Source of the DNA: Cirrosporium novae-zelandiae
Lineage: Eukaryota
Direction of reading: 5' to 3'
Length of the DNA stretch: 64,000 nucleotides
Assembly (NCBI GenBank): GCA_026023565.1
Contig: JAPETS010000034.1
Coordinates: 62,001 to 126,000, forward strand
The notes beneath the pieces are model-generated. The model was not told where the DNA came from, ran no database searches, and saw only the letters and a list, made by a program, of their open reading frames with translations. This document shows, in pieces, positions 25,808-49,164 of the stretch. Every line of letters starts with the position of its first letter. The first letter of the stretch is position 1. The translations under genes and the position numbers were made by a program.

Positions 25808-25851
25808 TACACACCGCCCGTCGCTACTACCGATTGAATGGCTCGGTGAGG
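25808..25851 (+). rRNA. 44-nt fragment of 18S rRNA (3' region); a captured fragment, not an rDNA unit
   Basis: TACACACCGCCCGTCGCTACTACCGATTGAATGGCTCGGTGAGG includes the universal SSU GTACACACCGCCCGTC motif (first G missing) and its fungal continuation. Confidence 0.92.
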
Positions 25852-26872
25852 GACAAGCAGTTGTGCAGGTAATATACAGGCACACCAAATACCTAGCAGA
25901 CCAAGGGGCTGAAGTCACTATTCGGTGGGTCCCTGGGCACCATGGAGTCCCCGGTAATGAGGCTGCGGACCAAGCAGCGAAAGCAGGCGTAACGCAGGGG
26001 AGCAGCAGGGAGGCCCCATGGACCTCTTTAGCTTACATAGCCCGCAGCATAACCGAAAAACGGGGTATAAAAATTTACGAGCAGCTGTAGCAATGGGAAC
26101 GACAAAATCACCCGAGAGGCTTTATATATTGCAACCAAAATATAAAGCGGATCGGGTGCTGGATTACGCATCAAGGGGGCTTGTCGATAGGCTCCATCAA
26201 TTAAGAACGGGGCACGCCGCTACCGGGGAGTATATGCACCGCACAAAGGCCATAACTACCCCGGAATGCTAGTGGTGCGGGGCCTCATGTCAAGATATCC
26301 CCAATTTGGTGCTAATATGCTTACGTTGGCGGACAGCTAGGGTCCGTATAAAAGGAGCTATAGAAAAGCAGGGGGGTCAGTAGCCCTGTATAGCCGATCG
26401 AGATGGGCTAGCGGTCTTGTTAGGGGACCGCAGGTTCTCTAAAGACTGGTTAAGATTTTTTAAATAATATGGGGGTGGGTAAGCCCCAATTTTGGACTAG
26501 GCATGAAAGGGAAACCCGCGAAGCTTACCTGGAGTGGGGGTGTGTAGAACGCGGGTATGGGGGGAAAGAGGACCCAGAAGAGGTGGGAATTGGGTAAGAG
26601 CTCGGCTCGCAGTAGTAACGCGAGGTGAGCGCATGCATAAAGCAGGAGCCGAATGGCTAAGAAAGAGGTACCCGGTGAGGTAGTTAAGCGATTCTAGGAA
26701 ATCTAAATCGGGGGGGGGGAGGCTTTTAAAGCCGAACCAGGGGCTTAACCCCCACCACCTTAGTTAAAAGCACGCCCGCAAGGGGACACGAAGGGGCCTA
26801 AGCCTAGGCGATAAGCCCCCGAGTCTTGTCCATCATAGCCGTCAAGCGACATATGGACATAAAACAATGAAT

Positions 26873-26910
<38 letters not shown>
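25851..26910 (+). mobile_element. 5'-truncated, decayed non-LTR retrotransposon (Tad1-like) with RNase H, C-terminal zinc-binding region, 3' UTR and (ATC)12 tail
   Basis: RNase H C-half VTIRWVPGHHGVPGNEAADQAAK, then LHQLRTGH and C*WCG...C, with stops and a frameshift. (ATC)12 at 26874-26909. Confidence 0.88.
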
Positions 26911-27077
26911 ATAAACCCAAAATCAGGGGGGTTTAACGCCCACCACCTTTAGTTAAAAGCATACCCGTGTGGGGGGGGCGGAAGGGCTCAAAGCTTAGGC
27001 TGCAAGCCCTGAAGCCTTGTCTGCCATAGGTCTTAAGCGACATGCAGACATAAAACAATGAATTATCATCATCATCA
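26911..27077 (+). mobile_element. Second, diverged copy of the same retroelement 3' tail, with (ATC)4
   Basis: Aligns by eye to about 26729-26880 (shared caccacct(t)tagttaaaagca, aagcgacat, gacataaaacaatgaa). Ends in (ATC)4 at 27065-27076. Confidence 0.85.
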
Positions 27078-29945
27078 CGAACCAGCGGACCATCGGTCAT
27101 CTCATACTAAAAAGTCTGCTCGAACAATTTTGATTGAGGAACAGTTCACACCAAAAGGGACATGCCTGAACCCTGTGAACAAAACCAAATACTTCCTTTA
27201 CGCCTATGCCCGCATATGCATAGGATGCATCGGTATAGAACTAGTACTCGAACCCGAGCCGCATTACAAATTCGATATGGAGCTAAGCGGGGCTCCTAGG
27301 GATGGGAGGCCAGGCACGCCAGTAGATGTTCTAGTAGTAGACTGCTGAGTCCCATGAGTAAGATGTTTAAAAGTCTGAAGGGGCGCTAAATAAAGGCCGA
27401 CCTAGAAAATGCAAGCCCTGAGACGTTCGCTTTGGGATCCTGCTTTAACTACGCGCCGAGTATTCGCGCTATCGAGGTCCGGCAGGATCGTAACCAAAGG
27501 GAGTCGTTGCATTAATCGAATTATTATGGCACCCAAAAAATTATTAAAAAAGGTGGAGAATGGTTTTGAGGAGAACATGGACGTTGATACCCCGACAGAT
27601 GAGGCCTGGGCCTCATCCGCTGATGGTGTCAAGCTCTCCAAAGAAAAATTTTCGTTTGACAACCCAAAGGGCGCGCCGATCCACCCCGTCATACGGGGTA
27701 GGAAACGCAAGTCCGATCTTTCGGAGAGGGAAAAGAACAAATCCCCTTCCATCCGTAACCCGATCCCTAAACCCATCAAGAGTCGTACCGCCACGCCTTC
27801 CGAGGCGGATACGCTCGAAAGTAGGGAGGAGGAGAAAGCTAAAGCGACCCCCTTGGAGGAAACTCCGGAGGAAAAACACCGAGGAAAAAATGCGGAGAAG
27901 AAAGCGGCGCGGAAATCGAAAACGACGGCTACCAAGGCCACGGAAAAAATGTCGGTCGAGGACAAACCAGTCTCGAAGGAGTCGGAGAAAAAGTCCAAGA
28001 TCAAAGAACCGGAAAAGCCCCGCATAGTTACTGCCTTTAGACGAGCTATGAGGAGCGGTTACTACATGTTGGCAACCAAATGCCACGCTGGAGACCCCGA
28101 GATTGGCCGGGAGGGGTTCATTCGAAAATGGACCGACGTCCGTGCCAAACAAGGGGGTGGTAGGCTTCCGGAGATAAAGGCGGTTCTTGTCTTCGGAAAA
28201 GAAATTGCCATCGAATTCAACTCTGCTGAGGATGCCAACGCTGTGGAAGGGGAAAAGTTTGAGAATGGTTCAGGTCACTGGATCCACCTCAAGCGAAATA
28301 TGGTTGCCACCGCAATTATTTTTTCTATCCGGAAAGCATCCCTTAGCAGTGCTGACGATGTAATGAGTGCGTTTAAGAAGAAGTTTCTGGTGGATAACTT
28401 CCGGCTGTACCAGGGATTGATCTCAGGAATTGGGACCCACGACTGGGCAGCTGAATTCTTGGAGCTACCATATACGACAATAAGGACGGTGGAGATCCCA
28501 GAGACAGAAGTGGAGGGAAAGGGTGCATGGAGCTGCTAAGTCGTCGCAGAAAGCTCTCCATGCCATTTTTGTAACCAACATGAACACGAGCAATGTGCCG
28601 CCGCGTGCGGTAGTCTGAAGTTCATGGGGGCTACAAATCATGTACCTATACACCCCCCCCCCCCTCTCCTAAAAAATGAATAGTACAAATAATAGAATAA
28701 TAATTGCATCCGTGAATATAAATGGAGCATTTGACCGCGACCGGATGCGAAGAGTGTATATATGGATGTTGGCTAACGATGTAGCCGTAATGGTGTTGCA
28801 GGATACCAGAGTAACAAATGAAAGAGCTGATGAATTTAGAGACGATTTCCTTAAAGCCGAGATAATATCCTCTATAGGGACAGATATTTGGTCAAGTATA
28901 ATAATAATGATTAATAAAGAGAGCGAGTTTGGGGCAAAGAAACGTGAAAACGATGAACAACTGGGGTGACACCCAGGGACGAGTCCTGATTGCTCCGGTA
29001 AAAACCCAGAGGGAGCAGTTTGTGGTTGAGTGTGTATACGCTCCACCGAACGAGAGATCAAGGAGGGAGTGGAGGTCGACCTTTCGAAAGGCTGCGGAGA
29101 GAAACTCGATTGATAGGCCTAAATGTGATTTTCTCTGCGGGGATTGGAATATGGCGATCAATCGGGATGACAGTAACTCGAGGCGGACCACCTCTTAAGA
29201 AGATATGGAGGTTCATACCGAAATTTTAGAGATGCTAGGCGACGGGGGGACGGATTTCACAGATGGGTGGCGAATATACCACCCTGATAAGAAAATCTTT
29301 ATCCACGATAACACAGCACTCCGAAATAGGGAAGGCGTTGGCAAAAGCTGAATAGATAGAATATATGTTTGAAGGGATTGGTACCTTAGTGCAAAACATT
29401 GGGATATTATCCCCACGATATTATCTGATCACAGCATAGTAAAGACTGAATATTGTCTCCGAAACCCCCTTTTCGGAAGGGGTAGATGAGGCTGTAAGGA
29501 AGATTTTTGGAGGTTCCAAGCGCTATTCAGGAATACTGGCGGTGCTTCAAAAGGCTGTTTGGACCCATGATTGAAAGAGCCCCAGATGACCGGGAGATGA
29601 CCCAAGAAGATAGCCAAAAAGTCCTCAAAATGTGGAAAAAGGCCAAAGACGACCTACAGGAGGCGATAACGACGAGACAACAAATGGATTGGCGACGGTT
29701 AAGATCTCAAAAGCATACCCTCAGGATGAAGGCCCAGTCAAGCTAGAGACCTGAGGAGGAAGCCATGATGTACAGGATAGAACTTGAGGAAGAAGACCAT
29801 AAGGATTATTGCTATACGGAATTTGTTTAGGAACATTTTTACGAAAAAGTCAAAATATCACAAGGTAATTAGTGCTAGGGCATAGACTAATGTCCTAACC
29901 CAATCGGGAATATGGTAGGGAACCGTATAACAGAGAGGCCATGAT
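27078..29945 (+). mobile_element. Decayed L1/Tx1-like non-LTR retrotransposon: 5' leader, ORF1 (27526-28683, zinc knuckle), ORF2 APE endonuclease (from 28676); truncated before the RT
   Basis: ORF1 is Lys/Glu-rich with in-frame CHFCNQHEHEQC after a premature TAA. ORF2 motifs: IASVNING, VLQDT, VYAP, GDWN, DGWRIYHP, S*IDRIYV, LSDH, GRGR* (G.G.W linker). Many stops and frameshifts. Boundaries approximate. Confidence 0.8.
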
Positions 29946-30559
29946 ATTTATTTTGACCAGATCGCTTTTAACCATCCATATACTATATAGGTCCGAACTG
30001 GTAGTAAATAATCTAATAAATGTATGATGTCCATCGGACGAGGTTGAATTTCACCCTCAAAGTAGGACTTGGATTCGGAGATACGAGTGGTCAAAGCGCG
30101 ATGTTTATGGGCTTTGCCGCAGACCCTTTCCTGCAGTATCGTCACCAATCCTATCAAGCTATCCACACAACCCTTCTATCTTTTGGCTAGCTACTATTAA
30201 TGCTATCAACGCACTGTCTACATGCAAAGAATTTGGTAATAGAAGATCCACGACCTAGAGAGCCACAATCTACCCTACATGTCAACCCCGCCACAGGATA
30301 ATAAGAAATCTTTACTCTTATCGTCAAGGACAGATTATCTGTAGGCAAGATAGCACCGTCATATAGATAAGACTGATAGCAATCATGTATTCAATTTCAG
30401 AATGCTGGCCATTCTCCGTATATCTATTTAACCTTTTCAGGCTCTTCTTTTGTTACTCCTTGCTTGCTGCCTACTTGGTTTTGCTCTTGAGGCATAAGAG
30501 CTAGAATTTCTGATTGGTTGCTTTTATTGAATTGAAATTTGCCGACACTGTGTTATACA

Positions 30560-48556: not shown

Positions 48557-49164
48557 ATGATCGACGATGGGAGCATCTATGGGGTCCGTCCGTCTGTCCG
48601 TCCAGTAGTAAGCTTTTATTATTATTATTATTATTATCGATTTCAAATATTGAATATCACTACCTATTCTATATGATATATCTTCGACAATTTGGGGTTT
48701 TCCCAGAATCAGGATAATGAGCAGCTCTCTTGTTTTCCCTTACTGTCACCACGCTACTACCACTACCAGTACTACTACAGTGCTACAGTACACACAAAAC
48801 TAAAGCATTTAAAAGAAAGAGAAGTGTTACCTAGATACCTAAAATATTGTCTTTTTATTTTTTTTTAAAATTCTTAGCAAACTTATATATGGTTGACGAT
48901 GGGAGCATCTATGGGGTCCCGGGTCCGTTCGTCCGCCCAGTAATAAGCTTTTATTTATTATTATTATTATTATCGATTTTAAAAATATCAAATATCATCC
49001 TTTCTACTACATATGTTACAATGGTCTCTCTGCCAATTCGAGTTTTTTTTTAGGATCAGAATCAGGATATGAGGAGCTCTTCTTGTTTCTCTTATCACTA
49101 CACAACCACTACAGGTCAGTACACACAAAACCAAGCATTCAGGGAAAATACGTTGCCTAGATAT
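48557..49164. repeat. Diverged tandem duplication, unit about 280 bp, period about 332 bp
   Basis: gacgatgggagcatctatggggtcc, aagcttttatt(att)n, cagaatcaggata, cagtacacacaaaac and cctagata each occur twice in the same order. Confidence 0.88.

Follow-up and report, generated by a model that had tools for sequence, protein, structure and literature searches.

A covarying terminal stem-loop at the 3' ends of Tad1-like fungal LINEs

The two diverged retroelement tails in the 64,000-nt stretch of DNA analyzed here (the window) each end in a bulged stem-loop of 33 nt that covaries among the families of related elements, and this hairpin is probably a stringent-type 3'-tail signal for the reverse transcriptase (RT) of the LINE. 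As had been proposed from the sequence, both tails belong to a LINE: they are the 3' ends of 5'-truncated Tad1-like elements from two subfamilies, and their anatomy shows that they are dead ends left by target-primed reverse transcription. The original prediction had placed an entire multi-hairpin module of ~150 nt under selection, whereas only the terminal 33 nt covary and recur in relatives. Selection upon the hairpin is best explained as having acted in active lineages, with the genomic copies decaying afterwards. The features are listed in Table 1.

Table 1. Coordinates of the tail features within the window
Feature	Position	Strand	Basis
18S rRNA piece, 44 nt, sense, at the 5' end of the copy 1 LINE fragment	25808..25851	+	
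Copy 1 element, 5'-truncated degenerate Tad1-like LINE	25850..26909	+	RNase_H match, 3'-end alignment
CAGGA-short stem-TAAG, possible first half of the second motif, copy 1	26643..26661	+	by eye
Putative upstream hairpins of copy 1 (G-run/C-run; CCC-GNRA-GGG 26775-84; middle stem 26793-97/26815-19)	26740..26819	+	
Terminal bulged stem-loop, copy 1	26827..26859	+	model R1 39.9 bits (training row); covariation
A-rich linker ending GAAT, then (ATC)12 tail (26874-26909), copy 1	26860..26909	+	sequence
Copy 2, 167-nt 5'-truncated 3' end, second subfamily (B), (ATC)4 tail 27065-76	26910..27076	+	
Terminal bulged stem-loop, copy 2, bulged C at 27025	27018..27050	+	model R1 45.3 bits (training row)

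The genome that we searched comprises 31.4 Mb and has a fungal-type gene content. It contains a full-length relative of the window elements (L091, contig C1), which is ~6.5 kb long, is flanked by a 15-bp target-site duplication, and encodes endonuclease (PF14529, E 6.2e-07), RT (PF00078, E 9.5e-17), and RNase H domains in addition to an upstream frame. This frame gave no Pfam match, and a Cys/His motif was recognized by eye upstream of ORF2. The family lacks LTRs and exhibits a 3' short tandem repeat, target-site duplications, and frequent 5' truncation. Its protein relatives are fungal, including an Aspergillus cristatus protein with the identical domain set and 35% identity over 740 aa, and RNase H follows the RT, as it does in many members of the Tad1 clade. 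By its domain anatomy, the element is a Tad1-like LINE. RtPc5 of Paracoccidioides, a LINE of the Tad/CgT group, is likewise ~6 kb in length with two ORFs and an endonuclease-RT-RNase H order (PMC4427930). Copies in the genome are numerous, as a 17-mer 3' anchor yielded 100 matches at ≤1 mismatch and its control yielded 0; all of our copy counts derive from DNA, pattern, and protein searches and are lower bounds. No RNA sequencing run was listed as containing the sequence. Most copies belong to a single family (family C), and when 55 of these were compared with one reference copy, 613 of the 678 differences were C>T or G>A. An excess of such changes is the mark of RIP. Within the 130-nt tail of this family (e.g. 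L002-L030), the RIP-like changes fell about equally upon CpA and CpT (0.32 each), with CpG at 0.15 and CpC at 0.09.

Copy 1 is a 1.06-kb fragment retaining the end of RNase H (PF00075, E 2.7e-07), the C-terminal Cys/His region, the 3' UTR, and the tail, and it is 74% identical to G000:C1:126922-127709, part of the L091 element. At its 5' end, positions 25808-25851 are 100% identical over 44 nt to G000:C122:3372-3415, which Rfam assigns to SSU rRNA, and the junction is likely a template-jump (template-switch) chimera. The chimeric retrogenes of Magnaporthe (WEIRD/Mg-SINE/MGL) similarly join the copy of a cellular RNA in sense to a 5'-truncated LINE (PMC2104539). However, those chimeras carry a full-length RNA, whereas the 5' part here is a 44-nt internal piece of 18S, and, unlike in Magnaporthe, we found no duplication flanking the composite of 18S, copy 1, and copy 2 besides the ATC repeats. 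Copy 2 adjoins the (ATC)12 tail of copy 1; it was either inserted into this tail or joined to it by a template jump, as both fit, and double jumps do occur among the Magnaporthe retrogenes (PMC2104539). Tail stubs were repeatedly found directly behind the ATC tail of another copy (L057:1513-1633, L080, and window position 26910), which suggests that they prefer existing tails as insertion sites.

The two copies can be aligned over ~140 nt; of 131 sites compared, 32 are different, and transitions account for 26 of these. The terminal stem is exactly as originally described, with TGTCCAT (26827-33) opposite ATGGACA (26853-59) in copy 1 and TGTCTGC (27018-24) opposite GCAGACA (27044-50) in copy 2, and the further motifs quoted with it (GGGGC/GCCCC versus AGGGC/GCCCT, CCC-GCAA-GGG versus CCC-GTGT-GGG, TTAAC, and GTTAA) are all present. 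In copy 1, the stem-loop consists of a 7-bp outer stem, a bulged C at 26834, two A-U pairs, a short inner helix, and a 4-nt loop. A double transition in a Watson-Crick pair always leaves a Watson-Crick pair. Even so, under the observed transition bias a particular 7-bp stem would show three compensated pairs beside four unchanged ones with a probability of ~2.5e-4, a value that applies to a single stem selected post hoc. It should be noted that in genomes subject to RIP, compensations between dead copies that consist of transitions only are weak evidence. Folding of the single copies was only modestly better than that of shuffled sequences (z -1.43 and -1.32). A likeness to the twister, pistol, hammerhead, and HDV cores was dropped after Rfam searches of the region and of relatives gave chance hits at most.

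Evidence for pairing came from relatives in other organisms, which were identified by alignment of the RNase H region and are 25-38% identical to it. The set consists of 80 metagenome loci, the best-scoring among 259 that were confirmed, plus 3 others. Pattern and protein scans of viral contigs found nothing. The 3' ends share a recurring shape, in which an outer stem is followed by a bulged C, AU, an inner helix, a free loop, the inner 3' arm, two bulged bases, AU, the outer 3' arm, GAWT, and a short repeat. What is conserved is the final 33 nt, with the single bulged C, two A-U pairs, a 3' bulge of 2-3 nt, and an inner helix of 3-5 bp; a short A-rich linker lies between this hairpin and the GAWT that precedes the tandem repeat, the unit of which varies among relatives (AAT, AAAT, AAC, CAC, CA, or AATC). 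We aligned 44 hand-picked rows: 13 little-mutated copies from the host genome and 31 non-redundant relatives, the latter selected from the 83 relative loci with an anchor that holds columns 8-13 constant. Across eight tested pairs, 90.5% of cells pair versus 80.2% after shuffling, double changes occur in six of the eight, and the covariation score of 0.463 (0.257 when shuffled) was reached by 0 of 500 shuffles. Sliding the partners out of register reduced pairing to 17-39%. Among the 31 relatives, pairs 15-30, 16-29, 10-36, 7-39, 6-40, and 5-41 all rank within the top 12 of 601 column pairs, and the swaps include transversions (G-C to C-G, A-U), which are beyond what RIP can make. Coincident pair changes were also counted on a protein tree of 32 tips. 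Pair 10-36 changed coincidently in four of five possible instances (reached by 0 of 58 matched background pairs), pair 16-29 in five of six (0 of 25), and pair 15-30 in three of three (2 of 59); pairs 7-39, 14-31, and 17-28 were unremarkable on this tree, and the summed tree statistic could not tell the true structure (0.70) from one slid by 3 columns (0.68). The bulged C and its U neighbor (columns 11 and 13) are invariant in 44/44 rows, an invariance that the row anchor favors.

A covariance model built from the alignment (R1) gave sense-strand matches in 61 of the 83 relative loci, at distances of 142-467 nt downstream of the ORF2 match, although 31 of these matches belong to training rows and one large family supplies 26 of the remaining 30. 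When at least 500 nt were available downstream, 50 of 55 loci were matched, and the misses were L129, L152, L154, L174, and L179, with L154 carrying a one-base-shorter variant that was seen by eye. The large family L120-L176 has a conserved G/C-rich nested hairpin (CTCCGCC...GGCGGAG) just 5' of its terminal stem-loop. Pairing selection upon the terminal stem, as the original prediction had it, is borne out by covariation across the families of the relatives and not within the host genome, as no pair covaries significantly in the 13 own-genome rows alone. RNAalifold recovered only the inner helix from the raw alignment. For three sequences of the window family, the model fold is less stable than the minimum-energy fold by 1.7-5.1 kcal/mol, and in 13/13 own-genome rows the first inner A-U pair has given way to an unpaired A-G or similar; the inner part of the hairpin may therefore be looser in the host lineage.

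The three compensated pairs that first drew attention to the stem proved to be of unequal value. For the pair beside the bulge, which is U-A in copy 1 and C-G in copy 2, the compensation is genuine and recurs across relatives. The middle pair is G-C or G-U in 41/44 rows and A-U in copy 1 only, so this A-U may have arisen late through a CpG change. At the third pair, 30 of 31 relatives have U-A or U-G, but 8 of 13 own-genome rows are unpaired. An inner GTC/GAC hairpin had also been described as kept between the copies, but the GTC triplets lie in different registers and occur in only these two of 13 own-genome copies. The inner helix is instead of the type AGY/RCT.

The ~100 nt upstream of the terminal stem-loop behaved differently. 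Five upstream helices plus the proposed pseudoknot were 79.1% paired versus 78.9% after shuffling (291/500) among eight own-genome rows from few intact lineages, although these pairing counts are a lower bound, with the middle stem offset by one column between the subfamilies. A profile of this part found nothing among the 83 relative loci (best E 0.68). The TTAAC/GTTAA pseudoknot is not supported: its helix pairs in 61% of cells among the eight rows, and 13 of 56 family C copies read TGAC/GCTA, which breaks the pairing. For the middle stem, the letters GGGGC/GCCCC and AGGGC/GCCCT are correct, but the change from G-C to A-U exists in copy 2 alone, and by eye five of the eight rows have no Watson-Crick pair at this position (A-C in L032, L052, L055, and L059; G-U in L054). 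There are nevertheless hints of structure: three subfamilies carry GCAA, GAAA, or GUAA in the CCC/GGG loop, and what family C has lost from the middle stem is precisely its small inner hairpin. As modeled, the upstream hairpins would be lineage-specific features with a plausible structure.

These results bear directly upon the possibility that the compensations are a mutational artefact, in which RIP or CpG decay turned C-G into T-A on both arms after insertion. Such decay would fit the overwhelming C>T and G>A bias of family C, the fact that all six changes in the three originally described pairs are transitions, and the lack of covariation in own-genome rows, and it can explain both the copy 1 change from G-C to A-U and the upstream stems. 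However, it accounts neither for the transversion swaps among relatives nor for the coincident changes that recur on their tree, and the terminal stems of the two window copies differ in both directions at adjacent pairs. The artefact is refuted for the terminal stem across families and stands for the upstream hairpins; as an explanation of the compensations, we regard it as very improbable. The G/C-rich hairpins with their possible pseudoknot, and several short copies that begin near the hairpin base, might suggest that the element RNA is trimmed by a self-cleaving twister-, pistol-, or HDV-like ribozyme, but the pseudoknot is unsupported, 5' truncation points are spread throughout the hairpin, Rfam (15) had no match in the tail region at E up to 10, and 12 relative loci gave only chance hits (E up to 1), which leaves this explanation with an almost negligible likelihood.

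The same scrutiny can be applied to the role of the hairpin and to the nature of copy 2. If the hairpin is the RT signal that we favor, the ORF2 protein would bind the terminal hairpin of its own RNA, the terminal repeat would anneal at the nicked target, and cDNA synthesis would begin at the annealed repeat, as in stringent-type LINEs. Hairpin binding by ORF2p and priming by the repeat at the nick have been shown for zebrafish and eel L2 elements (PMC4176376), and the stem of eel UnaL2 requires a single unpaired C (PMC5135761). Alternatively, the hairpin could help to form the 3' end of the LINE RNA, to stabilize this RNA, or to package it with the ORF1 protein. Its location at the very end of an RNA whose 3' terminus is a microsatellite and not a long poly(A) would suit such a role, and covariation reveals a structure and not its partner, yet its position, size, and bulge match the ORF2-binding stem-loops of L2 and R1 elements (PMC4176376, PMC5135761), and we therefore consider the alternative unlikely. 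It had also been suggested that the tail is shared with a SINE, and copy 2 might accordingly be a SINE or SINE tail, given that many insertions of its type are <200 nt and that Tad1/SINE pairs are known in Magnaporthe and Blumeria (PMC3747384). However, subfamily B exists in the genome mostly as stubs of ~25-170 nt that share one 3' end point and vary at their 5' ends, with no common tRNA-, 5S-, or 7SL-derived head of fixed 5' end. Of 18 short copies parsed (19 supplied), 15 proved to be flanked by a repeat of 9-15 bp, although a few of these matches sit in low-complexity flanks. No tRNA gene was found in any of the 14 short-copy loci scanned, five element loci gave no Rfam match at gathering score, and the B-type tail of L059 follows ~400 nt of LINE-like 3' UTR, in what is a weak alignment (best local match E 0.02-0.08). 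From the varying 5' ends, the lack of a tRNA gene, and L059, we conclude that the copy-2-type stubs are truncated LINE ends; no partner SINE emerged, and a SINE origin has only a very slim chance of being correct.

The tails of UnaL2, ZfL2-1/-2, and SART1 likewise have a terminal stem-loop whose asymmetric bulge is separated from the loop by a few pairs and which is followed by a short tandem repeat (PMC5135761, PMC4176376), and UnaL2 shares the single unpaired C with the hairpin described here (PMC5135761). The clade and the sequence are different, however, and UnaL2 uses a GGAUA loop, whereas the apical loop is free here and the conserved letters flank the bulge. Tad1 is counted among the stringent clades (PMC4176376), and its SINE partners and a 3' stem-loop are already in print (PMC3747384, PMC4176376, PMC5135761). 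The Tad1-clade LINE/SINE tails comprise MgL/MGR583 with Mg-SINE, Tad1-24_BG and HaTad1 with SINE2-1_BG, and I-1_AF with AfuSINE2-1a; these are also fungal and end in short repeats, whereas we found no SINE partner for the tail in the window. The printed Blumeria and Aspergillus tails (PMC3472496 Fig. S1, PMC5063351 Table 1) resemble the motif by eye, with CTG-CAT followed by an inner helix, then a CAG arm and TGAA/TGAG at the end; the MGR583 tail looks unrelated by eye. In the sections of those publications that treat them, the Tad1/SINE tails are given as alignments and not as a covariation model, and transposons are absent from the main text of a study of fungal structured RNAs (PMC8216456). 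We found no covariation model of a Tad1 tail in the literature searched, although Repbase, Dfam, or older papers may already describe the hairpin. Because stringent tails are an established concept for the LINEs of fish, insects, and plants and have been assumed for Tad1, the gain is a concrete structure rather than a new mechanism. If the hairpin is the RT signal, it would provide a short and testable cis element for template choice by fungal LINEs, and the model would mark the exact 3' ends of Tad1-like elements together with stubs of a few dozen bases in the genomes of fungi.

A second covarying motif of two helices was present in the 3' UTR of 13 relatives from one branch of the tree (L097, L098, L100-L104, L106-L110, and L136; e.g. 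L102:3608-3677). YAGGA or AAGGA comes first, then one helix, the four-base joint NAAD, and another helix whose opening letters are GCY, before RAG and a stretch of purines. Covariation was seen at four positions in the first of these helices and at one position in the other (1-80 of 5000 shuffles). A descriptor derived from the carrier rows found 12 of 31 UTRs versus 0.3% of shuffles, with the register of L110 parsed differently by the descriptor than by eye. Rfam had no match to the motif in nine carriers (one of them partial) among the 12 loci searched. The full motif was not found when the window family was scanned with the descriptor; copy 1 contains a possible first half, after which (beyond position 26661) it has a ~50-nt deletion relative to L032. 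It is conceivable, though we hold it to be doubtful, that the terminal hairpin is an undescribed RNA family across Tad1-like LINEs with 25-38% protein identity to the element studied here and forms a bipartite RNP signal with this second motif, which if true would give a fungal RT a defined structural code by which to choose its template.

Several further observations concern the relatives and the surroundings of the tails. A short purine-rich 3'-UTR block (CAGGTGGAAAAG or GTGGAGGAAAGA) is common to the AT-rich loci L114, L117-L119, L126, L145, L155, L165, L177, and L178, and is perhaps a reduced second motif or a splice acceptor. L177 and L178 are LINE 3' ends of fungal type on 2-kb contigs of a bacterial genome bin, where they are probably contamination. 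Right after copy 2, at ~27400-30400 of the window on the + strand, lies a second, unrelated, degenerate non-LTR-like element with a 377-aa open frame that has no Pfam match and then a broken endonuclease frame (PF03372); no RT motif was recognized in it, and it has only two partial matches elsewhere in the genome. The window also contains a diverged direct repeat pair (48557-48650 and 48889-48995), ~335 nt apart, both members of which end in ATT runs.
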